The translations under genes and the position numbers were made by a program. From positions 26,474,001-26,538,000 of the forward strand of contig NC_135823.1 in assembly GCF_964213995.1 (NCBI RefSeq): DNA of 64,000 bases, in the 5' to 3' direction. Positions within the stretch are counted from its first letter, which is position 1; the number at the start of each line of letters is the position of its first letter. Under the pieces are notes generated by a model. That model saw only the letters and a program-made list of their open reading frames with translations. It was not told where the DNA came from and searched no databases. This DNA is from Mustelus asterias. Lineage: Eukaryota. Positions 901-22,705 of the stretch are shown here, piece after piece.

Positions 901-2856
901 TCCCCTCCTTCTCTCCCACCCATCACCTCCATCTTCCTGCAGCTTGTTCCACTCTGCACACACTCTGTTCATTCCCTAAGTCATGCTGGACTCCAAGAGA
1001 AATGGATACAAGTGCACCCATGTTAGGGAGCGACTTGCTGGTGCAGAAAGCTGAGGTCAGCAAAAAGTCCTTCAGCACCCACCACATGACTTTCCTTTGT
1101 CACTTGAAACAACCATAAACAATATCAAACTCTTGTTGAATCATAACAAGAATAAGAAGAAAATCAATCAGCATCTGGCCTGTAAGTATTTGATAATCCC
1201 CTTAAATAGTGCTGATGGAGAGGGGATGGCCATTCCTGTGCTGAATGTGTGTTCAGCTATGCATGATTATGAGACTATATATACAAGCTTGAGCGTCAAA
1301 GTGACAGTGCCGGTATCAAATCAATTTTGTATGCTGATTAACATCATAACATGCCCACTCTGCAATCTTCCACAAAGCATTCTCTTTGTGTACATGAATG
1401 CCCCGACGTCAGATGTTTGGTGCAACATTTTGTATTTCAAATGGCACACATGACACCCAGATATTGGCGCTATGATCTGTGTCACACTGAAATGGTCAAG
1501 AGTGGTAGTAAACAAAGATCATTTATACAGACACTTAAAAATCATGCCTTATTATACTTGGAGCGAACACTTAATGTCTTCCCTCTCTAAATAAGAAAGT
1601 GTTGTTGCTTTCCTTGTAAAGTTGGTGAAATGGGCAAACGTATTTTCAAAAACACGCAAGCACAATTTGAAAATAAATGGTAATTAACAATGAGCTTGGG
1701 TGCATTTTCAAGGGCATCTTTCAATTTTCAGTTATTATAATAACTGGATAAAGAGTAGTTGCTAATTAGTTGCACAACTTTGTTCTAACAGATGTCTGTT
1801 TCCATACTCCGAGTTCTGGTGAGAGCCTCTGGAATGGCAGACGGAACTCAGTTCCATTGTGTCCATTTTAATTGTATTCGGTATGAGAATTGAATTATAT
1901 CTTTCTTGAATTTTATAGCCAATGCTTTTCTGTTTGCATGGGAGGTTGATTTCAATCATTTAAGGTAGGTGAAAGTGTCTGTTTATTGGCAATATTTAAA
2001 CTTATACATAAAAGGCTTCCATTACCTTCCCTGTCTCTCAGCATTTGTGTATTGGAATATTGGTTTGGTATTTTTAAAAATCAATGGCGCTCCCACCATC
2101 TAGGCATGCAATTATCAATAAACAAAGTCTTGAACAAGGTCAAATATCAAAGTTAACATACAGAAATGCGGCAGCACAAGCAAATAAATGAAACCTAATA
2201 AATTAACAATGGCAAAAACAGACCAAAATTAAACTACACCACAAATCATAGGCGTTAAGTAAATGGAGATGTTGCCAGATGTTATGTGGACGCATTTTCG
2301 CAAATGTCTAACAGAATCTAATAGAACAAAAACGGGGCTGAAAATTTGCAGGTCATAATCATAATCTGCAGGGCCCCATATCTAAGGATGGATGTGCTGG
2401 CCTTGGAAAGGGTCCAGAGGAGGTTCACAAGAATGAATCCTGGAATGAAGAGCTTGCCATATGAGGAACTGTTGAGGACTCTGGGTCTGTACTCGTTGGA
2501 GTTTAGAAGGATGAGGGGGAAATCTTATTGAAACTTACACGATACAGGCGAGGCCTGGATAGAGTGGACGTGGAGAGGATGTTTCCACTAGTAAGAGAAA
2601 CTAGAACCAGAGGGCACAACCTCAGGCTAAAGGGACGATCCTTTAAAACAGAGATGAGGAGGAATTTCTTCAGCCAGAGAGTGGTGAATCTGTGAAATTC
2701 TGCAGCAGAAGGCTGTGGAGACCAGGTCATTAAGTGTCTTTACGACAGAGATAGTTAGGTTCTTGATTAATAAGGGGATCAGGGGTTATGGGAAAACACA
2801 GTAAGAGTTTTAACAACACCAGGTTAAAGACCAACAGGTTTATTTGGTAGCAAATG

Positions 2857-2893
2857 CCATTAGCTTTCGGAGCACTGCTCCTTTGTCAGATGG
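2857..2893 (-). ncRNA. Minimal type I hammerhead ribozyme motif (G8>A, probably inactive)
   Basis: Minus strand reads CCAU-CUGACAA-A-GGAGC-AGU-GCUCC-GAAA-GC-UA-AUGG. Confidence 0.65.
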
Positions 2894-3516
2894 AGTGGAT
2901 ATCTGCTCTCAAACAGGGCATACAGAGACACAAAATCAAGTTACAGAATACTGATTAGAATGCGAATCTCTACAGCCAACCAGGTCTTAAAGATACAGAC
3001 AATGTGAGTGGAGGGAGCATTAAGCACAGATTAAAGTGATGTGTATTGTCTCCAGACAGATCAGCCAGCCAGTCAGACACTGATAGCCAAGTTCCGCACA
3101 CATGAGGACGGCCTAAACCGGGTTCTTGGGTTTATGTCACACTATCAGTAACCCCCTCAGCTTGCCTCCTGGACTTGCAGAATCTCACTGGCTGTCCTGT
3201 CTGGAGACAATACACATCTCTTTAACCTGTGCTTAATGCTCCCTCCACTCACACTGTCTGTATCTTTAAGGCCTGGTTGGCTGTAGAGATTCGCATTCTA
3301 ATGCAGGTCATAATCATAATCTGCAGGGCCCCATATCTAAGGATGGATGTGCTGGCCTTGGAAAGGGTCCAGAGGAGGTTCACAAGAATGAATCCTGGAA
3401 TGAAGCCCCGTTTTTGTTCTATTAGACATTTGCGAAAATGCGTCCACATAACATCTGGCATCATCTCGCATTTGATTTTGTGTCTCTGTATGCCCTGCTT
3501 GAGAGCAGATATCCCT

Positions 3517-3553
3517 CCATTTGACGAAGGAGCAGCGCTCCGAAAGCTAATGG
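3517..3553 (+). ncRNA. Minimal type I hammerhead ribozyme motif (C3>U variant)
   Basis: CCAU-UUGACGA-A-GGAGC-AGC-GCUCC-GAAA-GC-UA-AUGG, with stem I CCAU/AUGG. Confidence 0.7.
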
Positions 3554-3647
3554 CATTTGCTACCAAATAAACCTGTTGGTCTTTAACCAGGTGTTGTTAA
3601 AACTCTTACTGTGTTTACCCCAGTCCAACGCCGGCATCTCCACATTA

Positions 3648-3982
3648 TAGAACATAGAAACATAGAAACCCTACAGTGCAGAAGGAGGCCATTCGGCCCA
3701 TCGAGTCTGCACCGACCACAATCCCACCCAGGACCTACTCCCACATATTTACCCACTAATCCCTCTAACTACACATCTCAGGGACAATTTTTAACCTGGC
3801 CAATCAACCTAACCCGCACATCTTTGGACTGTGGGAGGAAACCAGAGGACCCGGAGGAAACCCACGCAGACACGAGGAGAATGTGCAAACTCCACACAGA
3901 CAGTGACCCGAGCCGGGAATCGAACCCAGGACCCTGGAGCTGTGAAGCAGCAGTGCTAACCACTATGCTACCGTGCCGCCCC
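3648..3982 (-). mobile_element. HE1-type tRNA-derived V-SINE
   Basis: A box TAGCATAGTGG and B box GGTTCGATTCC, V-domain TCTGCGTGGGTTTCCTCCGGG, CR1-like tail ending in (TTTCTATG)n. Confidence 0.85.
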
Positions 3983-4280
3983 AGTAATTATGGGAAACGG
4001 CAGGAGAATGGGGTTGAGAAAAATATCAGCCATGATTGAATGGCGGAGCGGACTCGAAGGGCCGAGTAATTCTGCTCCTATGTCTTATGGTCTATAATTC
4101 TGGTTGTTACATTGGCATTGCAGCAACCTGTGCCTTCTAATGTTGTTCTGGTTGAAGTATGTGTGGTCAGTGTAAGTGCACTCTTTTAGTCAGGATAGGA
4201 TTGCAAGTGCTATCATGAACCGTTCTCTGCTGTATCATTGGCGAGGGAGGCCTGCCTGAGCATCTGCCAACTTCATTCAG

Positions 4281-4944
4281 AGGAGGTGAATTTTCTGCTC
4301 CTTTCTTTTTGGGTGGGTGGGGGGGGGGGTGGTGGTGGTAGAGGAGAGAGAAGGAGTGGCAGGGAATGGGATCCCCTGGTGGCAGGAACAGGTAATCCCT
4401 CCAAAAGTTCCAAACTGCAATTTACACCGGCGGATTTCCCATTTCTATTGTTCAATTGTCAGGATCCTCATTTGATTCCATTTAAATGTAATTATCAGGC
4501 CTTTATGCCTGGTCGTTCCACCCGCTAGATTGTCCATTCACATTGGTGTGAGGACATGCTACACGAATTGCGACAGGTCCCCCACAGAGTGCGCCTGGTG
4601 GGCAGAACCTGCCAGAGGAGGTCAGGTAAGTGCTTGCATCAGCGGGGAGTGGGTCATGCCTGGGCACTGCCTTGTAACACTGCCAAGAAACATTGCCAGG
4701 GGATGTTCCGGGAAGTTGGGTGGGGGGGGGGGAGATGTTCCATGAGGTGGCTTCTGTTTTAATTTTTTTGTATTGTGGTGCCCATGATCTAAGTTGCCGG
4801 CTAGCATGATGTAGTGGGAACCGCCCCTTAGAATTTTTTTCCTACATGCCTAACAATACAGCAGAGGAAGCTGGCTTTGGGGCCCGTGCTTCCAGTCTTT
4901 TTCTCGCCTTCTTTCATGTTGCAAAAATAGAAAATTCCTCTCCT
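4281..4944. mobile_element. Non-autonomous DNA transposon (TIR element, possibly Harbinger-derived)
   Basis: Termini AGGAGGTGAATTTTCT and AGAAAATTCCTCTCCT are inverted repeats (14/16 match) around a GC-rich non-coding interior. Confidence 0.5.
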
Positions 4945-5588
4945 AACTACTGCAGATCCATACTTAAGATGATCAGTCTGCACAGAACAAATTCTTCAAT
5001 TTTTGGGTCTAAGCCACTACCCCTATTAAAGGGATGCTGGAGTGCCTAACTTCACACTGGATGTAGCATATTCCCTACTGGCATACTGGGCCATAGGAGA
5101 GAGAACTTCTGGCATAGAGGAAGATCCTGCCTCCAGCCACATTCTTTATCTTGTAAAGTTCTGTCTCTGACGAGGTGATAATGAAACTCCCTGAAACATC
5201 TTCTGGGAAGCTCCGTCATAACTAGCATGAGTTACAGCTAGAGAGTGGCAGAAATGCCGAAGAATTTCAGCCACAAGTTTCTCAAAAGGTCATATGTTCA
5301 GAACATCATGTGCACATTTGTACAATTTTCAGTCAGACTTCATCCCACCCCAAGCTGTTTTCGTTGACCAAGCTTCATTAGATCCACCCATTGCCACTGG
5401 TAATGGGACATTCTGACAATGCTATAGTGGGTACTGCTACTTAAAAAGAGTAAAACTTGACCAAGCGCCCCAATTGTTCAGAAGGTTATTTAAATTGTTG
5501 GGCTTTGGACTGAATCGAAGTTACACTGTTCACTATGAGGACCTCTCCTCCTGAAAGCAGCTTTGGCAGGGTCTTCTGCTCCTGTCTT

Positions 5589-5930
5589 GGGCGGCACGGT
5601 AGCACAGTGGTTAGCACTGCTGCTTCGCAGCTCCAGGGACTTGGGTTCGATTCCTGGCTTGGGTCACTGTCTGTGTGGAGTTTGCACATTCTCCCCATGT
5701 CTGCGTGGGTTTCCTCCAGGTGCTCCGGTTTCCTCCCACAGTCCAAAGATGTGCGGGTTAGGTTGATTGGCCATGCTAAAATTGCCCCTTAGTGTCCTGA
5801 GATGCGTAGGTTAGTGGAGTTAGCGGGTAAATCTGTAGAGATATGGGGGTAGGGCCTGGGTGGGATTGTGGTCGGTGCAGACTCAATGGGCCAAATGGCC
5901 TCTTTCTGCACTGTAGGGTTTCTACGATTG
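5589..5930 (+). mobile_element. HE1-type V-SINE, full length
   Basis: GGGCGGCACGGTAGCACAGTGGTTAGCACTGCTGC head, B box, V-domain, CR1-like tail. Confidence 0.9.
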
Positions 5931-7197
5931 CTAACAACTCTTCTCCTGGTTATCCCGAGCATAGCTGGGGAATGACACGGATTGCAATGCTGATGAACAC
6001 AATACAGGATATGATGACTCTTAGCTTCATTATCTGCGCCGCTCTCTCTTGTTCTCTCTTCTGCCTCTGTTCCCTCAATGCATCATAGCTTCTTTTTCTG
6101 TCTGCTTTTGCCTCTCTTTTGTTCCTTTTGGTAGTAGATGGTATCGTGTAGACTGGCTCCTCCCCATGTGCAGTATGTGGGGAGGAGCCACCAGCGGTCA
6201 TTCAGTGGGAGTAAGTTCAGGTCAAGGTAGAGAGGCAACAGTAACTCTGATTGACCCATTTCTATTGCTGCTTCCTGATTCTGTCCAATTTGCAACATCA
6301 GATGGTTAGGAGAATTTGACGGGTGTAATCCAGATGTAATTCAGATAAGCGTTAAAATTAAAATCTTTATCTATAGTTGTAAATGTATAACTTTGACCTG
6401 AACAGTCAATGGAACATGGTTGGGATAATAAGCTGGCTATGATAAATCACTGTGCCTATACTTACATTGTCATGCTTTAAGTACTCCCTTTTACGTATGG
6501 CGACATTACAGTCTTCTGTTTGGCAGGAGGGTGCAATTACAGTATGACAGGCTTATGCGAGCAAGTTTAATTGTAAATGTGGGCATAATAATTTATAATA
6601 GAAACAGCTGACAAAGTTTTTTCAGAACTGAAAAACTTTCAAAAATATATTACTGGTTGATCACTCATGGTGATGAACACAATGCTGTATTGATGACTGT
6701 TATCTTCACTGTGTGCGTTGCTCTCTCTTGCTCTCTTTACTGCCTCTGTTTCCTCAACTCGTCATACTTTCTTTCTCTGACTGTTTCTGCTTGTTCCTCT
6801 CTTTTGTTCCATTTGAGTGGAGGTGTTAGATGGCATGGCATGTTCTGGAAGATAACGGAGCTACCAAACTTTGCGGGCTGCATATAGGGTGGGAATGTAA
6901 TTTGCAAGAGAACTGTGTCTCTCGGCCGAGACCTTCCTATCACCCCTCCCGTCCCCGTTACTTATGTTTATCCATTTCCTCACACTTCCCCCTTACCCCT
7001 TCACCTTTCTACTATCCCACTACTCCATCACTCTTAAAAGTGGTTTAGTTTGCTTTCAGAATTCAAATCCTTTTTCAAATAAATAGAATTAGAATGAAGG
7101 AAGAATCTATCTGTCTAGCTGTGAGTCTCTCTCATGCTCTAAATGCAGTAAGTAGTCTCACAACACCAGATTAAAGTCCAACGGGTCTATTTGGTAG

Positions 7198-7232
7198 CAC
7201 GAGCTTTCGGAGTGCTGCTCCTTCATCAGGTG
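7198..7232 (-). ncRNA. Minimal type I hammerhead ribozyme motif, core intact
   Basis: Minus strand reads CAC-CUGAUGA-A-GGAG-CAGCA-CUCC-GAAA-GC-UC-GUG. Confidence 0.75.
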
Positions 7233-7434
7233 AGTGCAGGATTTGTTTCACAAACAGGGCATATATAAAGACAAACATGATAATGGTTGGAATGCAAATC
7301 TTTACAGGTAATCAAGTCTTTACAGGTGCAGACAATGTGAGTGGAGAGAGCGTTAAGCACAGGTTAAAGAGATGTGAATTGTCTCCAGCCAGGACAGTTA
7401 GTGAGATTTTGCAAGCCTAGGCAAGTCGTGGGGG

Positions 7435-9530
7435 TTACAGATAGTGTGACATGAACCTAAGATCCCGTTTGAGGTCATCCTCATGTGTGCAGAACTTAGC
7501 TATCAGTTTCTGCTCAGCGATTCTGCATTATCGTGTGTTGTGAAGGCCACCTTGGAAAACACTTACCCAAAGATCAGAGGCTGAATGCCCTTGACTGCTG
7601 AAGTGTTCCTGACAGGAAGGGAACACTCCTGCCTGGTGATTGCCGAGCGGTGTCCATTCATCCTTGTTGTAGCGTCTGCATGGTCTCGCCAATGTACCAT
7701 GCCTCAGGACATCCTTTCCTGCAGCGTATCAGGTAGACAATGTTGGCCGAGTCACAAGAGTATGTACAGTGTACCTGGTGGATGGTGTTCTCACGTGAGA
7801 TGATGGCATCCGAGTCGATGATCCGGCATGTCTTGCAGAGGTTGCTGTGGCAGGGTTGTGTGGTGTCGTGGTCACTCTTCTCCTGAAGGCTGGGTAGTTT
7901 GCTATATACAATGGTCTGTTTGAGGTTGCGCAGCTGTTTGAAGGCAAGAAGTGAGGGTGTGGGAATGGCCGTGGCGAGATGTTCGTCTTCATTGATAACA
8001 TGTTGAAGGCTCGGAGAAGATGTCGTAGCTTCTCCGCTCCGGGGAAGTACTGGACGACGAAGGGTACTCTGTCCGCCGTGTCCCGTGTTTGTCTACTGAG
8101 GAGGTCGGTGCAGTTTTGTGGCGCGTTGGAACTGTCGATCGATGAGTTGAGCGCCATATCCTGTTCTTACAAGGGCGTTTTTCAACATCTGTAGCTGTCT
8201 GTTGCGATCCTCCTCATCTGAGCAGATCCTGTGTATATGGAGGGCTTGTCCGTAGGGGATGGCTTCTTTAACTTGTTTAGGGTGGAAGTTGGAGAAGTGG
8301 AGCATCGTGAGGTTATCCAGTGAAGTGCTGAGGTGGCTGTCCTTGATGGAGATACGTGTGTCCAAGAATGCAACAAATTCTGGAGAGTAGTCCATGGTAA
8401 GTCTGATGGTGGGATGGAACATGTTGATGTCATCATGTAGTTATTTCGGTGATTGTTCACCATGAGTCCAAAGGAAGTAAATGTCATCAATGTATCTAGT
8501 GCCTAGTGTTGAAGGTCCTGCGTGGTGAAGAAGTCTTGTTTCACCCTGTGCATGATGATTTTGGCATATTGAGGTGCGAATTTGGTCCCCATGGCTGTTC
8601 CATGTGTCTGGATGAAGAACTGGTTGTTGAAGGTGAAGACATTGTGGTCCAGGATGAAGCGAATGAGTTGTAGAATCGCGTCTGGAGATTGTCAGTTGTC
8701 AGCGTTGAGTAGAGGCAGTTGCAGCAATGCCGTCATTGTGGGGGGATGCTGGTGTAGAGTGCCAAGACATCCATTGTGACAAGGAGTGTTCCTGGTTCAA
8801 CTGCTCCATGGGTGCTGAGTTTCTGTAAGAAGTCCGTAGTGTCATGACAGAAGCTGAGGGTTCTTTGTATGATGGGTTTCAGGATGCCTTCGACGTAGCC
8901 AGGCGTACTCACATGGGGTCCCATTGCCTGATACAATGGGAGGGCCCGTTGTGTTGGCCTTGAGTATCTTCGGGAGGCAGCAGAGATCTCCAAAGCGAGG
9001 AGTACGTGGGATGAGAGCACTGAAGGTCCGGATCAAAGGTCTTGATCAGTCTGTTGAGTTGACAGGTGTGTTCTTTGATCGGATCTGCGGGTAACTGTCT
9101 GTAGTGTTCCTCGTTGTTCAGTTGCCGATACACTTCTTTGCAGTAATTCATTCTGTTCAGTATGATGGTGGTCTCTCTTTTGTCTGCTGGTTTGATGACA
9201 ATGTTGCGGTTGGTCTTGATGGCGTTGTATTGTGCTTGGGTGACGTTCGGGGCTGTCTTGTGAGTGCAGCTGATGAATCTGGCATTGATGCACCTCCTGA
9301 CGGCTTGGACATACATGTTGAGTCGAGGGCAGCGGCCTTCCAGAGGAGTCCATTTCGACTCTTTCCTCTTCGGTCGCTGCACCGTGGATTCCTCTGTCTA
9401 GTTCATTGGCTGTCTCATTGGGTTCGCTGTTGGCCTCTTGGGGTTTGTGGAAAAACTCCCAGAGCCTCATTCGCCTGATGAATTCCTCTGTGTCCACTGC
9501 GAGACTGATGGGGTCCATTTTGGTGGTGAG
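7435..9530 (-). pseudogene. Frameshifted Penelope RT plus GIY-YIG endonuclease ORF
   Basis: IVIKPADK, LPKI.K...PIVSGNG, DTTDFL, LVTMDVLALYTSIP, GTAMGTKFAP, RYIDDI, FLDT, HPK..KEAIPYGQA, Cys linker PCHSNLCKTC (Neptune-like) and VYLIRCRKGCPEAWYIGET. Confidence 0.92.
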
Positions 9531-9959
9531 GCAACCAAAGAGGAAAGAGTCGAATTGGACTCCTCAGGAAGGCCACTTCCCTCCACTCGACATGTATGCC
9601 CAACCCGTCAGAAGGTGCATCAGTGCCAGATTCAACAGCATCACGGCACACGACAACGCAGAATCGTGAGCAGAAACTGATAGCCAAGTTCCGCACACAT
9701 GAGAACGGCCTCAACCGGGATCTTGGGTTCGTGTCACACTATCTGTAACCCCCACGACTTGGCCTGGGCTTGCAAAATCTCACTAACTGTCCTGGCTGGA
9801 GACAATACACATCTCTTTAACCTGTGCTTAACCTTCTCTCCACTCACATTGTCAGTACCTTCAAGACTTGATTACCTGTAAAGACTCGCATTCCAACCAT
9901 TACCTTGTAAATTGAGTTTGTGTCTATATATGCCCTGTTTGTGAAAGAAATCCTGCACT

Positions 9960-9994
9960 CACCTGATGAAGGAGCGGCGCTCCGAAAGCTCGTG
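9960..9994 (+). ncRNA. Minimal type I hammerhead ribozyme motif, core intact
   Basis: CAC-CUGAUGA-A-GGAGC-GGC-GCUCC-GAAA-GC-UC-GUG, with palindromic stem III AGCU. Confidence 0.8.
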
Positions 9995-10362
9995 CTACCA
10001 AATAAACCTGTTGGACTTTAACCTGGTGTTGTGAGACTACTTACTGTGCTTACCCCAGTGCAACGCCGGCAACTCCACATCATGCTTTAAATATATAACC
10101 TCTATGTCTGCCAGGTGGGCATTAAATTAGAAGCTCAACCTTAGAATTGTGTGCAATTCGCTTTGACCCTCAGTAGGCTTTAAAATGTTAACTTTTTTTA
10201 AAAAATGAAGATTAACTGGCTATTTCGCTCCCCCACCCCTTTCGGCTTAAAACATTTTCTGACATTTATAGAAGATAAAGAATATATAACAGGTGTACAC
10301 AGTCATTTCTTTACAGACCAGCATTCACCAATTTATACCTTGATTTCCCCCCCCCGACTAAC

Positions 10363-10474
10363 CTTGCATTGGCAACACATTCTAGAGTGACCTCGCTTGT
10401 GCCAGCGACGATGCTTGTGTTTTTCGGAGGAACAACAATTGTTGGTACCACAGGATCATCAGGGTCGTCAGCAT
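10363..10474 (-). CDS. sdk2: Internal coding exon of protein sidekick-2 (Ig2-Ig3 linker and start of Ig3), 112 nt, phase 1 to 2
   Basis: Acceptor ttcttctccatgcag and donor AG|gttagt. Translation (D/N)[37 protein letters not shown] closely matches vertebrate SDK2 [28 protein letters not shown] (recalled from memory) and fits it better than SDK1. The ORF track misses it. Confidence 0.92.
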
Positions 10475-11114
10475 CTGCATGGAGAAGAATGCAAGTTACA
10501 AGCAGTGATCAAAGGGCAAAGGATATTACCCAATTTTAGAGCAAATGTTGTGCGAACAACAATGTCAAACATTCTGGCTCTTACATTTATTAAAAAACCG
10601 GTGCTTCAAGCTTGAGCAGAAACCTGAAGACATCAGAAACAATGCCGATAATGTCCATAGTAGGGAAATTCTCCTCAATTATGAAAATTTTAAAGCAAGT
10701 TTTAAGTGTAACGTGATTGTTTAGTAATTGTTTTTAAACCAGAAACTACAGAATCATAACTGAAATTTACTGAATCTCATGTTCAAATTAAAAATAGGCC
10801 CTGGATTATCAGTCACTCTGTCATGCACACAGAACAAGAATACATCTGATTTACATGGTAGGATATCAAAAATAATAAGATGCAAATTAAGAAAAGGGAA
10901 ATGCCACATGACCAAAGCAAATAATTTCCTCTCAATGATAAGAAAATGCTAAGAAAAACATCTGCTGTTGCCTTTGAATTATCTATAGTCTATCAAGAAC
11001 ATTAAAAAGTAATGTTCACTTTGATTCTTGATTTAATTTCACAATCAATTTTAGGATACAGTTTGCAGCCATTCAACTTCAGTCACAAATTCACACCGTA
11101 TTCTGGGATTTTCT

Positions 11115-11765
11115 TTTGTTTTGTCATGGATGTGGACATCACTAGCAAGCTAAGCATTTATTGTCCATCCCTAATTATCTTTCAGAAGGGGGTGGTGAGC
11201 AACTGCTTGAACTGCTGCAGTCCATGTGGCATAGGTTCTTTCAAAGCACTGTAAGGTAGGGAGTGCCAAGATTTTGACCCACAGTCAAGGAAGGAATGAT
11301 GACATAGTTCCAAGTCAGGATGGTGTATGACGAAGTTGGTGGTACTCCCATCTGCCCGCTGTGTTTGTGCTTCTGGGTGGTAGAGGTTGTGAGTTTGGAA
11401 AGTGCTGTCAAAAAAGCTGCAGTGAGTTGCTGCATTGTATTTTGTAGATGGTACACACTGCAGTCACTGTGCATGGGTGGCAAGTGAAGTGAATGTTTAA
11501 GGTGTGGATGGGATCCCTGGTATGCTGTTTTGTCCTGGATGGTGTTGAGATTCTCGAGTATTGTTGGAGCTATTAATGCTAATTATTCCATCACACTCCT
11601 GATTTGTGCCCTATAGATGATGTAAAGGCCTTGCAGAGTTAGGAGGGGAGTCACATCATGCAGAATATCCAGCCTGAGGTGTTGCTGTGGCTATAATGTG
11701 TGCATGGCTGGTCCAGCTTAAGCTTCTGGGAAATGGTGACTCCAGGATACTGATGGTGGTGGATT
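11115..11765 (-). mobile_element. Old, degraded CR1-like LINE 3' region
   Basis: Related degraded blocks at 19040-19390, 23670-25145, 34780-35975 and 37800-43050. Remnant APTxLxxLNTIQDKAA motif. Confidence 0.6.
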
Positions 11766-13804
11766 TAACAAGGAATAAGAGGAATGGTGCACCAACTGCC
11801 TAAAAGTGCTGGGAAGATAAGACTGCTACTAAAATAAATGTATTAATAACATCTGTGATAAAAGGATTGGCACAGAAGATAAGTTTGCAAAGTTTTCCAT
11901 AGCTGTTCAAAATTACACTGGGGTATGTCATTTTATATCAGTTATTGCACTAGCTCAAAACTGTTTTGCACCAATTATGGGCATCCACAAAAGTTTTTTT
12001 ATGGGGACAGAGTGGGTGAAGATAAGTAACTTAAATTGATTTTATTGGTCCTGGTGCATGAAGTGTCCATTCCGACTAGGTGTCCCATAAATCAAAACAA
12101 TTGTATTTTGTTCTGTATGGTAACAAGCTGAGCCTTTGTTTTTATCACACTACAAGATGTTGTGTACAGAAGTGGAAAAAGTAAGAACTCAGCCAAAGTA
12201 GATTTGTCCAAAAAAATGTAAGAGTATTGCAGCCAACAACTGCTCTGAACCAGATAACAGGTAATAAGGAATGAGTCACACTTCAAAGCGCAGAAGTTTT
12301 CTTAAAGCCCTCGGTAAATGAAGCAAAATTGACGTGCATAATGTAAAGAACACTTTACTTTTAAAAAGTGCTCTGAAAATTTAAAGCTGATCAAAGCCTG
12401 GAGGTCACTGCTGTTTGTAAGTATTTAAGTGACAATAAGTAGCTCCCAATATTATAATGCTGTCTACAAAACATAGTCTGGATAAACAGGAATTAAAAGG
12501 GAAGGAAGGGTTGATTCTGAGAGATATGCAGGTTGGAAAATCAAGCATTCAATAGATTTGCAACTCCGCTTTCTCATGAGCAATCAAGAGGTATAACTGA
12601 AGCCTCTCAAATATGTAAGTAACTTGCTTAAAAATCAAATTTCAAATCTCCAGGTAAGGCTCCAATCAAAGTACACATGTCCATTCTATAAAATGGCTCC
12701 ATGAAAAGCCCTGTTGTATAGGTTCACAAAGGTTGAAGGATGCTTTTTTGCTTCAATTTTCCCACTTGTAAATCCTTCCTGTATTTTGTTCCATGCACAT
12801 CAGCTGGCTTTATTGGTAGCCTACCAGTTTGGGTTATTTCCTGGCTCGTCTTTCCGTCCATTATTCCCAATTGCTGTTACATTTACGGCGTGACTCTACA
12901 AAGTTAATCTCTCAGTGGGGTAAGCACGTTTGTAGAAAATGTGGATCTGTGATAGGGTTACAACATTGTGGCTGCACTGTTGTCTTCACAAAGTATAGCA
13001 AGTGGAATTTGAAGAGGGGCACAAGATTGGTGGGAGGGGGTGAAATCCTACCTTGGAGTAGTAGCATTTCCAACTCTATGGGGTAAAGTGAAAGAGCACA
13101 TCACCACTATGAACAATCCTCTGCTTTTAACACCTTTAGTTCCGTGAGTTGCAACCTTTGCTGAGATTTCTAGCCAAGTGTGGTCAACCACTCTGGGAAA
13201 GTTTCACGTGTGCCAGCACCCTATTGGAAGTAGGGACAATGATTTTTTTAAATCATAAAATATGGTGAAAGCCTTTGAAAGATTTTTGGGTCAGATATTC
13301 CTATGCCGTGTGTTAGCATTGTCCTATTTTTTGCCATGGTCATAAAATTAGGTCTGAAAAGTCTCCTTCTCCATTTCTATTGAAGAAAACAATACTGCCA
13401 CATTAACGTCATTTTTCATTTGAAATTTTAAGAAGAGCACAAAGTTGACTTTCCGCTGTATTGCACCATGCAGGACAAGTTGATTGCAGTGAACTTTCTT
13501 TGGAATTAGTGACAGGCTCCCAATGCAAATGACAGGGTGCATAATGTTGAATTGTAAAGAAATGGGGTTATGATATATGGAATATATACAAGAAATTAAT
13601 TTAAAAATTACTTTTCAGTAAAACCTACAGCAAGATGCATTTTCTATGAACAAAAGCTGACCAAGCATATACATGGTCAATTCCCTTCACATCAATGTGA
13701 CATTGCTGATAAGAATTACAAACATTTAGAAGCCACTATCCTAAGGGTCCTTACAATGGTAACTCATGCTCAAGTACAATGCTAGCTTAGATAAGTAAAA
13801 TCAT

Positions 13805-14270
13805 CATAAGATAAGACCATGAGATTTAAATATAGGAGCATTTAGGCCAATTGGCCCATCGAGTCTGTTCTGCCATTCGATCATGGCTGATAGGTTTCTC
13901 AACTCCATTCTCCCACCTTTTTCCTGTAACCTTTAATCACATCACCAGTCTAGAACCTATCTATCTCCTGTCTTAAATTCACTCAATCACCTGTGCCTCA
14001 CAGCCTTTGTGTAATGAATTCCATAGATTCACCCCCTCTGGCTGAAGAAATTCCTCCTCATCTCAGTCCCTTTACTCTGAGGCTGTGCCCTTGGATCCTA
14101 GTCTTTTCTACTAACAGAAAAAATCGATCCAGGCCTTTCAATATTCTGAAAGTTTCAATGAAATCCCTCTCATCCTTCCAAACTTCATCAAGTACAGATC
14201 GAGAGTCCTCAAAACACTCCTCATACGCCAAGCTTTTCATTTCCAGAATCATTCTGGTAAACCTCTTAGA
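13805..14270 (-). mobile_element. CR1 LINE 3' fragment
   Basis: MKSLAYEE...DFIETFRILKGLDR...TRIQGHSLRVKG and a (TCTTATG)-like tail. Confidence 0.8.
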
Positions 14271-14599
14271 ATCCCTGCAGTGCAGAATGAAGTCACTCAG
14301 CCTATCGGGTCTGCACTGAATCTTACCCAGGCCTTATCCCTGTAACCCTATCCCCGTAACCACACGTCTTTTACCCCACTCCTCCTAACCTATATGTATC
14401 TTAGGACACTAATGGGTAATTTAGTATGGCCAATCCACCTAATCTGCACATCCTTGGACTGCGGGAGGAAACTGAGCACCTGGAGGAAACCCACGCAGAC
14501 ACAGAGAGATGGTGCAAACTCCACACAGTCACCTAAGGCCGGAATTGAACCCAGGTTCCTTGCGCTGTGAGGCAATAGTGCTAACCACTGTGCCACCAT
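14267..14599 (-). mobile_element. HE1-type V-SINE
   Basis: tRNA head, V-domain and CR1-like tail on the minus strand. Confidence 0.85.
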
Positions 14600-16073
14600 A
14601 AACTCCTTCCAGGTCCAAATTATGTTGCTCCTCCTTTCACGAAAATTCCCATGCGCTTGCTCCTAAGAAGAGCTCATTGTAAGTGAGAAGAGAGGCTGAA
14701 AATAACTTCAGGATTCTCACAACATCAGAAGGAAATCCAGGTCTGTGTCAGTAGCATGCCAAAAAGCTTGCTGCAAATAATCATTCTGAGCTGCGGAAAT
14801 CACAAGTGAAACTCTTCATATCCTTTAGGCTCAACACCTTATTTCCACTTGTCTGCCAATCGTACCTCAGGCCCCAGGTGCTTTGTGAGTGCAAAAACGA
14901 GAAACACACAGTTGCAGTGCTACTGGTCCTTCTTATAATATATGTATTTGAAACTACTCAGGACTTGGGCCCATTATGTGATCTGCCTGCCAAGTGGCAG
15001 AGACTTCAGAAGGATTTGATTTTGGAATGAAGAATTGACATAAACTGCTTCCGCCCTATTTGGTGCCAAAATGTTCAACACCTCTAACTGTATGCTTCAA
15101 TTTTGCTGAAGAGAACATGGAATTTCTGAACCAAGATTTTAAAGCACTCTCCATGACAGGATTGTTGCTTATCTTTGCAGTCGATTCACTGTTAGTTAAG
15201 ACTTGTCTTGATATTTGACAAGTAGAAGGTCTTTCAGCAGGAAAGAAACTTGCGCTGTGACAAAAAATAGTTGGAGTCAGAGTTATGGCACAGGAGGCGG
15301 CCACTAGCTCATCAAATTCATGCCGGACTGGGGATGGAAAACTAAAACCAAAAAATAGAAAGGTCACAGGCCTGAAACATCAACTGGGTTTTTCTCTCCA
15401 CAGGTGCTGCCTGACCTGCTGAGTGTTTCCAGTTTAATTTTCAGTATCCACAGTCAAAAAGCAAATGCATTTGATCTTTGGTGCCGAGAGAAAATGGTAG
15501 AAATATACATCAAAGGAAAGAAAATAAAACCCAAAACATGCTACCGAATAGGGGTTTATAAGATGATGGGAGGTTTTCATAGAATAGATATAAGAAAGCT
15601 ATTTAATCTGGTGAATGGGTCAATAACAAGAGGTCATGCATTGAAAAAGCATTGACAAGATAACAGGAGGGGATTTGAGCAGAATTTCTTTCATTCCAAA
15701 CTGCTGGGGTTCAGACATCACAATTTTAGCACACCCCTACCACCTCCCACTTTCTACCCAACCCAATTTTTTCATGTCATTTGACATCATCTACTTTCAA
15801 CGGCTTTTATTTGACATCAACTGCACTCGATTGCAATTATTTTGTCATCAACTGATATCGCTTGCACTCATAAGCAATTATCTGGCTGTCATTCTATTTT
15901 ATTTTCATTCAGAACTATACTTGCGATGTCAAACAATCGTTATCAACTGACATCATTGTCTTCAATTGCTGTCTTGCAATGATCACAACAAAATGTGACA
16001 ATATATACAGTCAGGGTCCAGCACAGGAACAAGGCGAGGCAGGGTCCATTGCAGGACCAAAAATGAGGTTCAG

Positions 16074-16400
16074 CTAGAGCCAGGTCGGGGGGGGGGGGGG
16101 GGGGGGGGGGGCCGGCCCAGAGCCAGGTCGGGGGGGGCCCGGCCCAGAGCCAGGTCGGGGGGCCCCGGCCCAGAGCCAGGTCGGGGGGGGCCCGGCCCAG
16201 AGCCAGGTCGGGGGGGGGCCCGGCCCAGAGCCAGGTCGGGGGGGGGCCCGGCCCAGAGCCAGGTCGGGGGGGGCCCGGCCCAGAGCCAGGTCGGGGGGGG
16301 GGGGGCCAGAGCCAGGTCGGGGGGCCCGGCCCAGAGCCAGGTCGGGGGGGTCCAGTCCAGAGTGGAATCGGGGTCTAGCCCAGGAGTGTGGAGGTGAGGC
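16074..16400. repeat. GC-rich minisatellite, about 10 units of GGCCCAGAGCCAGGTCG(G)nCCC with variable G-runs
   Basis: Directly visible tandem units of about 26-30 bp. A degenerate purine-rich repeat (GAATGTGAAGGCTGGAGGGAG-like) follows to about 16900. Confidence 0.9.
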
Positions 16401-16920
16401 CCTAAAGCCTGGAGGGAGGGAGCAAACTGCTAGCGGGAGGGAGGGGATAGGGGGACAGGCTGGGTGACAGGAGGAAGAAGCGAGAGGGAAAGAGAGGCTG
16501 GGAGGAGGGAAAGGCTGCAAGCCAAGAGGAAGAGTCTGAGCAAGGGAAAGGCTGGAGGGGGGTGTCAATTGGAGATTGGGAGGGAAGGACCGGGGTTGGG
16601 GGAGGGGGGGGGGGAGGAGGTGGTGAAGAGAATGTGAATGCTAGAGGGAGCTAGGGGGGTGGAGGTGGAATGTATAGGCTAGAGGAAGCAAGGGGGAGTG
16701 TGTTGAGGCTGGAATGATCAAGGGGCAAGTGTGGAGACTAGAGGGAAGGAGGGGGAGAATGTGGAGGTTGGCGGAAGCGAGGGGGAAAATGTGAAGGCTG
16801 GAGGGAGTGAGGGGGAAATGTGAAGGCTGGAGGGAGTGGGGCAGACGTGTGGAGGGTAGAGTCAGTAAGTAGTGTGGGGTGGGGGGAGAATTGTGACCTG
16901 GCAACTTGGGGAGTAGGTGA

Positions 16921-18285
16921 GTGGAAAATAAATTTAAGAAGGGTAGCAAGGATAATCCAGATAATTACTGGCCGATGAGCGTTACATCAGTAGCAGCGAA
17001 ATTATTGGAGAGGATTCTTCGAGTCAGAATTTATTCCCACTTGGAAATAAGTGGACATATTAGCAAAAGGCAACATGGTTTTGTGAAGGGGAGGTCGTGT
17101 CTCACGAACTTGATAGAATTTTTCGAGGAAGTGACAAAGATGATTGATGAGGGTAGGGCAGTGGATGTCGTCTACATAGACTTCAGTAATGCCTTTGACA
17201 AGCTCCCTCATGGCAGACTGGTGCAGAAGGTGAAGTTCAATGGGATCAGAGATGAGCTGGCAAGAGGGATACAGAACTGGCTTGGTCATAGAAGACAGAG
17301 GGTAGCAGTGGAAGGAGTTTTTGAATGGAGGGCTGTGACTAGTGGCGTTCCTCAGGGATCAGTGCTGGGAGCTTTGCTGTTTATAATATACATAAATGAT
17401 TTGAAGAAAACGTAACTGATTTGATTAGTAAGTTTGCGGACAACACAAAGGTTGGTGGAATTGCGGATAGCGATGAGGACCGTCAGAGGATACAACAGGA
17501 TATAGATCAGTTGCAGACTTGGGCGGAGAAATGGCAGATGGAGTTTAATCCGTTCGAATGTGAGGTAATGCATTTTGGAAAGTCTAATGCAGATAGGAAA
17601 TCTACAGCAACTGTCAGAACCCTTAAGAGTATTGATAGGCAGAGGGATCTAGGTCACAAAGTGGCAACGCAGGTGGAGAAGGTAGTCAAGAAGGCATACG
17701 GCATGCTTGCCTTCATCGGCCAGGGCACTGAATTTAAAAATTGGCGAGTCATGTTGTAGGTTTATAGAACCTTAGTTAGGCCGCACTTTGAATATAGTGT
17801 TCAATTCTGGTCGCCACACTACCAGAAGGATGTGGAGGCTTTGGAGAGGGTACAGAAAAGATTTACCAGGATGCTGCATTAGCTATGAGGAGAGGTTGGA
17901 GAAACTTGGTTTATTCTCTCTGGAACGATGGAGGTTGAGGGGCGACCTGCTAGAAGTCTACAAGATTATGAGGGGCATGGACAGAGTGCATGTTCAGAAG
18001 CTTTTTCCCAGGGTGGAAGAGTCAGTTACTAGATGTTGTACGAAACAAGTTTTTTTTTTACACAGAAGATAGTGCATGCCTGGAACTCGCTGTTGGGGGA
18101 GTAGTGGAAGCAGATATGATAGTGACTTTTAAGGGGTGTCTTGACAAAAGAATAGGATGGGAATAAAGGGATATGGCCTCTGGAAGGGTAGGAGATTTTA
18201 GTTCAGAAGGACAGCATGGTGGGAGCAGGCTTGGAGGGGGGAAGGGCCTGTTCCTGTTCTGGAATTCTCTTTGTCCTTTGTTCTA
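16921..18285 (+). mobile_element. 5'-truncated, decayed CR1 LINE (RT domain to tail)
   Basis: QHGFVKGRSCLTNLIEFFEEVT, DFSNAFDKLPH, SGVPQGSVLG and SKFADNTK, with stops and frameshifts and a (CTTTGT)n tail. Confidence 0.92.
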
Positions 18286-18544
18286 TAGACCCTGAGACTA
18301 AAAAGAAGAACTGATGGGGATCAGATTGTGCTTTTATGTATGTATTTTATTGTGGGACAACTTCTTTAGACTAAATGAAAAACTGAATAAATCAGATATT
18401 CTTTGAGTTGGTGATATCCTTGAATTTTTCAATGCAGATTGCTGAGCGTATTTGATTGCTTTGAGCATGCTACCAAATTTGATATCGAATTCATTCCAAG
18501 TCAGAACGATTAATGTCAAGTTGTAATCAAGAACATTGAGCACA

Positions 18545-19030
18545 CGTCAAAAAATGTCAAACTTTTCATGACATGAGGTCAGCTAAAATTCTGTTTCCCA
18601 TGTCTTAACTCACACCAAGTTCTGTTCACCCTTCGATCCTGTGCACCATGGTTTACACTGGTTCCCCAGCCAAGCAGCAGCTCAAGTTAAAAGTTCTCAT
18701 CTTCACAAATCCCTCAATGACCTTGCCCCTCTGTATTTCTGCAATCTCCACGAGCCCTGGAACCCTGCGAGTTATTCCCACTCATTTAAGCATTCCTAAT
18801 TTTAATTGCTCCACCATTTACGACCATGTCTTCAGAAGCCCAGACCCTAAAGCTCTGGAGTTCCTCCCTGCAACTCTATGCCTCTCATATTTGCTTTCCC
18901 CCTCTAAGACACATTCCTCAAAACCTATTTCTTTGACCAAACTTCTGCCCACCTGGCCTAATATGGTTTGTGTCATTTTTTTCATTTATAAGGCTCCTGT
19001 GATGTGTCATAGGACATTTAACATCAAAGC
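18545..19030 (+). mobile_element. Degraded L2-like LINE 3' region
   Basis: HPS.LC..LHWFP...LKLKVLIF...ALE.LP pattern typical of the L2 ORF2 C-terminus. Confidence 0.5.
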
Positions 19031-19794
19031 TGATCTTGATTCAGCGATGGCAATGGTGTTGAATGTTAAAGGGAAGTGATTGGATTCTCTTGAGATAGCT
19101 GTTGCCTGGTGCAAATATTACTTGCTACTTATTAACTCAGGCCTGAATCCTGTCCAGGTCTTGCTGCATGTGGGCATGGACCATTTCATTAACTTTGAAG
19201 TCACGACTGGAATTGAACAGTGCAATCAGCAGCAAACACCCTCATGTCTGACCTTATGATAAAGGGAAGGACATTTACCATAAGCCTTCAGCCATTCAAA
19301 TAGGTGGTTTACCACCACCATCAATGGCAATGAGGGATAAGCAATAAATGTTGGCCTTGCCAGTGACACCCACATTCCATGAATGAATATTTAAAAAAAC
19401 TAAAGGTGATACCATATTTAATTTAATGTATTCCTGCACAATAAATCCAGCCACATTCATGACAGAGTAAGGTCAGAAAATTGTGAAATGTACTTCTCTG
19501 AGCTAAATGATCCCCTCAGACTGCTGATCAAATTTCTCAATCATTTTTAAAGGTTTAATCTTGAAACATTTTACAGATTTTAAAGAATTAAAGCATAGTG
19601 GTTTGGTTTGACATAAATCAATTTGTATCACCTTTAAGGTACTGTATCCCATTTCTTGGACCTTTACAAAATTTTAAAGCATGTTGAAAATTCTGGAACT
19701 TTTGGAACAGATTTTGGATCACTCAATTAAATTGGATTAAAAGTTGCTCGGAGCTGCATGCAGGATGCATTGCACAAAGGTCCAACAGTACAAA

Positions 19795-20182
19795 ACTTAT
19801 AGAAACATATAAGATTATGAAGGGAATAGATAAGACAGAAGCAGGGAAGTTGCTTCCACTGGCGGGTGAAACTAGAACCAGGGGGCATGGCCTCAAAATA
19901 AGGGGGAGCAGATTTAGGACTGAGTTGAGGAGGAACTTCTTCACACAAAGGGTTGTGAATCTGAGGAATTCCCTGCCCAGTGAAGCAGTTGAGGCTACCT
20001 CATTGAATGTTTTTAAGGCAAGGATAGCTAATTTTTTGAACAAAAAAGAAATTAAGGGCTATGGTGAGCGGGCGGGTAAGTGGAGCTGAGTCCACGAAAA
20101 GATTAGCTATGATCTTATTGAATGGCGGAGCAGACTCGAGGGGCCAGATGACCTACTCCTGCTCCTAGTTCTTATGTTCTCA
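19795..20182 (+). mobile_element. CR1 LINE 3' fragment
   Basis: MKGIDK...TRTRGHGLKIRG..FRTELRRNFFTQRVVN..NSLP followed by the 3' UTR. Confidence 0.88.
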
Positions 20183-20425
20183 TTAAAATCAGAATTTCAA
20201 AAAAAAACAGGCATTCGTGTAGCATCTTTCACAAAGTCAGGACAGACCAAAATGCTGTCAAACCAATTAAGTACTTTTAGAAGTGCAGCCACTACTGTAA
20301 AGTAGCAAACCTGTCAGGGAAGTTGCAATGATGTGGAGATGCCGGCGTTGGACTGGGGTAAACACAGTAAGAAGTTTAACAACACCAGGTTAAAGTCCAA
20401 CAGGTTTATTTGGTAGCAAAAGCCA

Positions 20426-20462
20426 CACAAGCTTTCGAAGCTCTAAGCCCCTTCTTCAGGTG
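20426..20462 (-). ncRNA. Minimal type I hammerhead ribozyme motif, core intact
   Basis: Minus strand reads CAC-CUGAAGA-A-GGGGCU-UAG-AGCUUC-GAAA-GC-UU-GUG. Confidence 0.78.
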
Positions 20463-21085
20463 AGTGGGAATTCTGTTCACAAACAGAGTTTATAAAGACA
20501 CAGACTCAATTTACATGAATAATGGTTGGAATGCGAACACTTACAACTAATCAAGTCTTTAAGAAACAAAACAATGGGAGTGGAGAGAGCATCAAGACAG
20601 GCTAAAAAGATGTGTATTGTCTCCAGACAAGACAGCCAGTGAAACTCTGCAGGTCCACGCAACTGTGGGCGTTACAAATAGTGTGACATGAACCCAATAT
20701 CCCGGTTGAGGCCGTCCGCGTGTGTCACGTCCTCTGATATTCGGGTAAGCGTTCTCCAAGGCGGCCTTCGCGACACACGACAGCGCAGAGTCGCTGAGCA
20801 GAAACTGATAGCCAAGTTCCGCACACACGCGGACGGCCTCAACCGGGATATTGGGTTCATGTCACACTATTTGTAACGCCCACAGTTGCGTGGACCTGCA
20901 GAGTTTCACTGGCTGTCTTGTCTGGAGACAATACACATCTTTTTAGCCTGTCTTGATGCTCTCTCCACTCCTATTGTTTTGTTTCTTAAAGACTTGATTA
21001 GTTGTAAGTATTCGCATTCCAACCATTATTCATGTAAATTGAGTCTGTGTCTTTATAAACTCTGTTTGTGAACAGAATTCCCACT

Positions 21086-21122
21086 CACCTGAAGAAGGGG
21101 CTTAGAGCTTCGAAAGCTTGTG
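21086..21122 (+). ncRNA. Minimal type I hammerhead ribozyme motif, core intact
   Basis: CAC-CUGAAGA-A-GGGGCU-UAG-AGCUUC-GAAA-GC-UU-GUG. Confidence 0.78.
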
Positions 21123-22684
21123 TGGCTTTTGCTACCAAATAAACCTGTTGGACTTTAACCTGGTGTTGTTAAGCTTCTTACAGGGAAGTTGCATACAGGA
21201 AGATTCTACAAATAGTAATGAAATGATAAAAAATGATCAGATGATCTATTTCAGCAATATCAGTTGAGGGATAAATATTGGCCAGGATGTGGAGAAAATC
21301 CCCTGCTCTTCTATAAAATAATACCATTGAATTTTTACGCTTCCTTAAGGGTCAATGGGACCTCAGTTTAATGTCCCATTTAAAAGCAACAGCATGAAAC
21401 TTCTTTAATACTGTACCGAACTGTCAGCCAGGATCTTGAGTTCATGGCTCTGGAGGGGGCCTGAACCCAAAGCCTTCTTACTCAGGCAAGAAGGCTGCTT
21501 ATCTGTAAGTGAGAGCAGGAAAAATATTTCCACCTAAGTTTGTATCACTTTGGTGTCAAAGAAATCTCACTGGCCTCCATAATGTAGCATTTTGGAGTGG
21601 TAAAGAATGCTTTCTGTTGAAGATGTTTCGTAATATTTGAAAAATGTTACAGGCGGCACAATGTGGAAGATTTGAATGAAGATTAATCTCTCCATCAAGT
21701 TCAGTGGCTGGAATTACTTTTTTCCCCACAAGTACTGAAGAATAACCCAGAATTAATCTTTTATTAATGCTTATCCCAGAGTAATCCTTTAAATTTAATT
21801 CTAATAATCTATCATTTCCAAATAAGCTTGTCTAAGCGTGAGAAGGGTGATAATTACATGAACTCAGAAAATTGCCCACATATGTTTTTTGTCTACTTAA
21901 TGACTATAAAACGACAATTAAGCAAAAAAATAAATTGCCTTAAGATCATATTAAATGTACTTGGTTTCCATTTATTCAACATCATATTTTTTGAAGAGGC
22001 AGCATTTGTATAATTGCCTGCACTTGTCTCAAAATAAAGAGCAAAATAATAAAAATTGCATTCAGTTCTAGACCTTGGCATCATTTGACAACAGGGTGGC
22101 ATTTTGGGGAGCATATTGATGAGGAGAGAAGGTCATAGCCAACAAGAATAGAGTAATCTTGCCACAAAGTGTAATAGCTACACATTACTGGTTCACAGAC
22201 AGCTATCCTTGCTGTAAGGCACCACATCACAAAACAGAACGTCACATTGTCTGCAACAGCGAAAATCTAGATGAGAAAATGATTCAATTGTAAATGTGCA
22301 TGCTGCTATTAAGGTACAATTTTCCTGGATAGTCACTCCTGGCTCTAAACACCAGAAATCACTACTTGTGAAAAACTCCCAACAAACCTCTCCCAACCAT
22401 TCAATTAATGTAGCAAAATTAAGTCTAATTCAATAAATTCCTCAGTGAATTGCGTGCCCGAGATAACAACCTATTGTCCTGAATGCTGACATATTGCATG
22501 GTATGAAATCTAAAGTATTTCCTTGAACATGAATAAAACAAAGCCAGGTAACACTGTGCTTGTTAGAGACGTATTTGTGTGTGTTAGTGTATATGCATGC
22601 GTGTATTTTCATCGCTCAATATTGCTTTGAAGATAATGCACTTCTCGTGCCAGAGTCAGAACACATTGTCTGCATCATAATATG

Positions 22685-22705
22685 GAGATGCCGGCGTTGG
22701 ACTGG
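22685..22705 (-). mobile_element. 21-bp Penelope tail-only insertion
   Basis: GAGATGCCGGCGTTGGACTGG is identical to the tail at 20336-20356 and is flanked by the direct repeat ATAATATG. Confidence 0.75.

Follow-up and report, generated by a model that had tools for sequence, protein, structure and literature searches.

Do the hammerhead ribozymes of Penelope-like retrotransposons cut RNA in cells, and do copies that have landed in introns cut the pre-mRNA of the host gene? The question is raised by a stretch of 64,000 nucleotides from Mustelus asterias (NC_135823.1, positions 26,474,001–26,538,000; the window, to which all positions below refer), in which six minimal hammerhead motifs lie in three fold-back Penelope-like insertions within introns of a sidekick gene. 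The function of Penelope ribozymes has been called unclear (PMC8557442), and minimal hammerheads have been described without in vivo evidence of cutting (PMC4209133; statements on cited work refer to the sections of it drawn on here). Whether they cut in cells is the question that matters. We consider it probable that the motifs stay uncut in the sidekick pre-mRNA, as predicted from their folding, and that among the transcripts of the element itself a minority is likely cut by the ribozyme. The chances are about even that the genome keeps a nucleotide-exact record of this cutting in the germ line, in the form of thousands of insertions copied from RNA that began at the cut, and that in fold-back landing each new ribozyme comes locked by the antisense arm of its insertion. 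If true, the antisense lock would account for the tolerance of about 100,000 self-cleaving motifs, genic and intergenic, in a vertebrate genome. The six motifs themselves are ordinary parts of a retrotransposon that is very abundant, and the three insertions that carry them are dead; the motif, the opposite-strand pairs and the inverted arms have all been published already. The fresh point of the analysis, and the part worth an experiment, is the footprint at the cut, where an excess of 5′ ends offers a precise and cheap test.

Element 5′ Ends at the Predicted Cut Site

Insertion 3 (20328–21181, both strands) consists of two head-to-head arms, on the minus strand at 20328–20725 with the tail and on the plus strand at 20728–21181, with 99% complementarity over 359 nt and a target duplication of 13 bp (20315–20327 and 21181–21193). 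Each arm has a hammerhead with an intact core and the cleavage triplet CUU, at 20426–20462 on the minus strand (predicted cut 20429/20428) and at 21086–21122 on the plus strand (predicted cut 21119/21120). The insertion is made of two 5′-truncated copies, head to head, of the 3′ end of an intact element, to which it is 97.6% identical. This intact copy (L043) has a frame of 892 amino acids with a hit to the reverse transcriptase (RT) family RVT_1, a DKG motif and a C-x4-C-x2-C linker; its GIY-YIG-type C-terminal region was recognised by eye and gives no Pfam hit. The frame has a decayed homologue in insertion 2. The ribozymes of L043 lie in two direct pseudo-long terminal repeats (pseudo-LTRs) 3,021 nt apart, in addition to which there is an inverted arm, and the predicted cut is 99 nt upstream of the ATG, which is the layout required by a double hammerhead with helix III formed from AGCU:AGCU.

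If the ribozyme cuts the element's transcripts, RNA beginning at the cut would give arms that begin at position +1. Arms of insertion 3's subfamily were counted genome-wide at four positions, with the two bases before the arm required to depart from the element's sequence: 1,567 begin at +1, compared with 421 at −1, 411 at −2 and 349 at +2 (about 520 when scaled for the narrower prefix). This is a 3- to 4-fold excess of 5′ ends at +1, in a young subfamily with intact 892-amino-acid copies. All of the first 30 +1 loci inspected are true 5′ ends with varied joints, and 57 of 60 control loci are likewise true ends; in 26 of the 30, the partner arm is no more than 60 bases away and its end is mostly at or 3′ of the cut. 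The joints at the cut often contain short re-copied pieces of arm ends (stuttered template switches), with palindromes of about 130–200 bases. A literature search for a genomic cleavage footprint or for shark motif counts found none; the supplements of PMC4209133 and of a 2026 preprint may list shark motifs.

A mechanism that would leave such a footprint can be proposed in several steps. Tandem transcripts would form the double hammerhead, perhaps aided by protein, and a minority would be cut. Both nicked DNA strands would then prime copying of the RNA, at two sites near the tail; in 54 of 64 pairs one arm has the tail and the other lacks it, and a related element shows two-strand priming of this kind (PMC11167929). 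On cut RNA the cDNA would run off at the cut, giving an arm that begins at +1, whereas on uncut, re-ligated or circular RNA it would read through the ribozyme and give a longer arm. Head-to-head joining of the two cDNAs would place a motif on each strand of every insertion, and the inverted arms do support the sequence-only reading that the fold-back layout brings one motif per strand. In a host RNA that reads through the insertion, the antisense arm would come first and zip up the ribozyme.

Several observations weigh against this account. The count above covers only four positions, and a single subfamily. Among arms with stem I CCAU/AUGG, 356 begin at +1 compared with 415 at the +2 control; 69 of the 100 control matches listed begin with GTGG by hand count and are probably of another subfamily, and the excess at +1 is then only about 1.8-fold, part of it due to palindromic joints. 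Among 71 sampled arms, 52 read through the cut; the starts of 2 fall at +1 and those of 17 between −4 and −45 (some of these may reflect small indels), with three starts each at −9 and −36, and other hot spots may exist. Among 100 listed genome-wide matches to the core change G8A, five pairs carry it in both arms (e.g., G000:C1:39556837/39557825), and either dead ribozymes may still be copied or inverted arms may convert each other. In insertion 2 a distance of 2.1 kb separates the arms, which may slow their pairing. For the anole element, the sections of PMC11167929 drawn on report no RNA-seq ends at the cut and cleavage that is not needed in vitro.

The chief competing explanation is that transcription begins at +1. 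In its broader form, this rival ascribes the +1 pile-up to transcription initiation of the element, to cutting by a protein nuclease or to an RT stop, with no cutting by the ribozyme in vivo; we hold this to be unlikely. A G following a pyrimidine fits a transcription start under the initiator rule, and +1 is such a G, 99 nt upstream of the ATG, a position compatible with a start site. The weak +1 peak in the second subfamily and the absence of RNA ends from the anole element's cut site (PMC11167929) point the same way. On the other side, the peak falls on the single nucleotide that was predicted beforehand. An RT stop at a helix would be expected 3′ of stem I or stem II rather than at +1. A start site might leave an extra cap G, and none is clear: G precedes +1 in 38 of 100 listed matches that start there, where about one-third is expected (a hand count, and a weak point). 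Finally, position 17 is never G in 156 copies, in keeping with a rule of catalysis.

Minimal Hammerheads in Sidekick Introns

A 112-nt exon at 10363–10474 on the minus strand was recognised by protein comparison as a sidekick exon (the start of Ig3). The sequence-only reading had named the gene sdk2; the sidekick assignment stands and the paralogue is doubtful. This exon scores best with Sdk2 (56 vs 33 bits), whereas Sdk1 is the better match for both the preceding exon and a later exon (68.9 vs 51.1 and 110.8 vs 74.3) and a fourth was compared with Sdk1 only, so that the host gene, judged by these comparisons, is probably sdk1 rather than sdk2. One exon nearer Sdk2 amid exons nearer Sdk1 could reflect exon conversion, or a slowly evolving lineage that has retained ancestral residues. 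The gene is on the minus strand, with insertions 1 and 2 in the intron after the exon and insertion 3 in the intron before it; the introns flanking the exon are about 17 kb and about 105 kb. The intact minus-strand cores at 7198–7232 and 20426–20462, both sense to the gene, thus lie on either side of the exon, as had been proposed.

The further implication, that this arrangement is special and that sidekick pre-mRNA is cut, fares poorly. The arms of each insertion point outwards, and on either strand the antisense arm is therefore transcribed before the sense ribozyme. When the whole insertions are folded as the minus strand (a nearest-neighbour prediction without Mg or protein), the share of ribozyme bases paired to the partner arm is 35 of 37, 33 of 35 and 37 of 37. 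The arm duplex over 75–77 bases is predicted at −131 to −150 kcal/mol, compared with about −11 for the double hammerhead. Because the antisense arm is made first and the predicted duplex buries the ribozyme bases, cleavage of the pre-mRNA by the intronic cores appears unlikely, and the predicted antisense lock speaks against a regulatory role of intronic copies in host genes. In published work, minimal hammerheads are inactive as monomers and weak as dimers (PMC4209133), or depend on the protein of the element (PMC11167929).

It is very improbable that the two intact minus-strand cores cut sidekick pre-mRNA, singly or as a dimer across the exon, and thereby alter its splicing or level. Both cores have CAC/GUG and AGCU, and a mixed dimer of −10.9 kcal/mol can be drawn; this is weaker than two separate folds (−13.0 kcal/mol) and far weaker than the arm duplexes, and 13.2 kb separates the cores, with the antisense arm of each insertion predicted to trap the core there. 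The third minus-strand core (2857–2893) is dead. A slow hammerhead cut within an intron left splicing intact in work cited by PMC2995048. The cores are also unconserved after insertion (see below), and the layout around the exon is expected by chance. A strict pattern has at least 96,093 matches in the 3.68 Gb genome, or one per 38 kb or less, whereas its reversed control has none, and with introns of the above lengths this density makes intact cores on both sides of the exon expected. A 39-base flank motif has 131,126 matches genome-wide, and 40 random 10-kb stretches contain 24 arms, 17 with intact cores, corresponding to about 156,000 genome-wide (95% range 91,000–250,000). Contigs from seven runs of several organisms contain related arms.

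Alternatively, the fold-backs could matter to the host as long double-stranded RNA, through A-to-I editing or back-splicing of the exon, rather than as ribozymes. Insertion 3 is predicted to fold to about 370 bp (z −62), and the arms of insertions 2 and 3 are 76–81% alike across the exon. Every arm has a better partner within its own insertion, and the arrangement is common (an inverted partner stands beside 10 of 20 random arms with room for one), so that the sidekick gene is not singled out; we consider this role quite unlikely. One low-depth contig of 90 bases (run X3) aligns to 21047–21133 with a cluster of A>G differences over the ribozyme, for which hyper-editing, a paralogue or error are possible sources. 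A-to-I editing is not claimed: the contig's 10 A>G vs 2 T>C places became 12 vs 12 on a longer stretch.

Cores, Stems, and Decay after Insertion

A descriptor scan of both strands of the window, allowing at most one core mismatch, returned exactly six hits and none elsewhere, the same six motifs that the sequence-only reading had placed. With the minimal stem III descriptor, none of 20 shuffles has a hit; the loosest form gives four hits in 20 shuffles. The AGCU palindrome and the extra base A9.1 are present in all six, and the palindrome and the cleavage triplets CUA, CUC and CUU are as had been claimed. The earlier statement that each arm has CUGANGA holds for four of the six. In insertion 1, the minus-strand motif at 2857–2893 has CUGACAA, a core broken by G8A (a CpG transition), and the plus-strand motif at 3517–3553 has UUGACGA, a core changed by C3U. 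In insertion 2, both cores are intact with the triplet CUC, at 7198–7232 on the minus strand (predicted cut 7201/7200) and at 9960–9994 on the plus strand (predicted cut 9991/9992). The U3-A8 core swap of Schistosoma is ruled out for insertion 1, the two changes of which sit on different arms. C3 and G8 are needed in the protein-assisted cleavage published for the anole element, where mutants at either position abolish cleavage; the substitutions made there are other than those in the window (PMC11167929). A search of Rfam gave eight matches up to E 10, with no hammerhead family among them; the motifs lack helix III. By sequence, the motifs have the helices I and II and missing helix III that define the minimal type I hammerhead, and four of the six also its intact core (PMC4209133); their assignment to Penelope-like pseudo-LTRs is supported.

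For the stems, 192 arms were collected; they are related to one another, and most lie in the first 2 Mb of a single contig. Of these, 188 were not selected on the core alone, and 156 of the 188 hold the whole motif; the others were too short or too changed and were dropped, and the flank motif failed to pick up insertion 1's plus arm. An intact core is present in 136 of the 156 full motifs, and pair 10.1–11.1 is G-C in 141. Position 17 is U in 94, A in 49, C in 13 and never G, whereas position 7 is free. Pair 2.1–1.1 is C-G in 96, U-A in 52 and U-G in 4, and pair 10.3–11.3 is A-U in 77, G-U in 61 and G-C in 18, being paired in all 156. One subfamily has an extended stem I in its predicted fold.

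The stem covariation that had been read from the window is real, and was overstated. In the window itself, a single stem I pair is altered on both sides (U-A vs C-G), and the stem II differences are wobble changes plus one extra pair. Among 32 distinct copies (of 34 aligned), 98.8% of 256 cells are paired, a value reached by none of 500 shuffles. Two-sided changes are seen at two of eight pairs, a number that does not exceed that of shuffles (270 of 500), whereas the other measures do. Independent covariation events are few because the copies are related, and the alignments suggest that the fold was kept, through few events, while the subfamilies diverged.

After insertion, cores decay like their flanks, i.e., there is no conservation: in 54 arms selected on neither motif, changes number 11 of 594 core positions and 34 of 2,106 flank positions (p 0.72). 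In one subfamily counted genome-wide, 29,979 copies are intact, 2,836 have the harmless C7U and 1,504 have the lethal G8A at the same CpG site, a difference that looked like selection. In the arm sample, the two changes at this CpG number 6 vs 6, a comparable skew (17 vs 7) is found at a CpG outside the ribozyme, and all outside CpGs together give 46 vs 46. The corresponding CpG-decay comparison at G12 is 18 vs 4.

Carrier Insertions and Related Elements

Judged by its sequence features, the carrier is an endonuclease-bearing (EN+) Penelope-like element, with RT and GIY-YIG in one frame, pseudo-LTRs, an inverted truncated copy, a one-sided tail and a target duplication. A Pfam search with eight decayed fragments from the window gave nothing useful, and the identity of the element was taken from intact copies; a protein search with an insertion 2 fragment gave 22,542 candidates, of which 150 were scored, some in frames of 912 codons; L043 is one of these candidates. 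The linker and domain features fit the Neptune or Nematis type of EN+ element, in which RT is followed by GIY-YIG, with DKG, a CX2-5CxxC linker, direct pseudo-LTRs, an inverted 5′-truncated copy, a 30–40 bp tail on one end and a target duplication (PMC8557442; PMC3846280). Insertions 1 and 3 differ from these in being two short arms only.

The motifs share with the minimal hammerheads of metazoan Penelope-like elements the missing helix III, the palindromic 15.2–16.2, the extra base between 9 and 10.1 and G10.1-C11.1, as well as several covarying families per genome, genome-wide spread and opposite-strand pairs 100–700 bp apart (PMC4209133). Stem II is 4–6 bp here, compared with 7–8 bp in Schistosoma, and that study counted about 9,000 motifs in Xenopus and about 4,000 in coelacanth, compared with at least 96,093 here by a different descriptor; its main account covers no cartilaginous fish and no 5′-end footprint (PMC4209133). 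In the Poseidon element of Anolis (PAc), both strands are cut and extended, with two internal start sites that bracket the tail, as would fit the one-sided tails described above (PMC11167929). The PAc ribozyme overlaps the start codon and, in the sections drawn on, shows no RNA ends at the cut, whereas here the ribozyme is 99 nt upstream, and one subfamily has a pile-up of genomic 5′ ends at the cut. Non-LTR retrozymes also have type I hammerheads linked to Penelope-like elements, in tandem there and inverted here (bioRxiv 10.64898/2026.07.22.740005); such a retrozyme, built of frameless units in head-to-tail tandem with a hammerhead in each, was rejected for the window, where the arms stand head to head and correspond to the 3′ end of a coding element. 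Conserved amniote hammerheads such as that of RECK are likewise intronic, being single conserved motifs, in contrast to the young repeat copies here, which show no conservation among one another (PMC6155905).

Insertion 1 (2790–3648, both strands) has head-to-head 5′-truncated arms of the CCAU/AUGG subfamily, at 2790–3082 on the minus strand and at 3074–3301 and 3472–3648 (with tail) on the plus strand. Its target duplication, a 10-bp direct repeat at 2786 and 3988, is split by a later short repeat. The plus arm is interrupted at 3302–3473 by about 170 bases copied from 450–1,100 bases upstream: 3302–3405 is identical to 2347–2450 (104 bases) and 3404–3473 is an inverted copy of 2261–2339. The interruption looks like templated repair of a hairpin break.

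Insertion 2 (7140–10084, minus strand) has a decayed RT and GIY-YIG coding region (about 7438–9533), a 3′ pseudo-LTR and an inverted plus-strand arm with the tail at 9641–10084; its arms are 89% alike, and its target duplication has a 7-bp exact core. A second, internal fold-back at 9246–9663 (72% alike), at the 5′ end of the coding region, is an inverted piece of the N-terminal part of the frame. Elsewhere in the window, a G-rich tandem repeat at 16076–16375 (about ten copies of a unit of about 27 bases) is followed by a purine-rich stretch and a decayed region resembling a long interspersed nuclear element (about 16950–18250), and a lone 30-base element tail lies at 22675–22705 with no arm adjoining.

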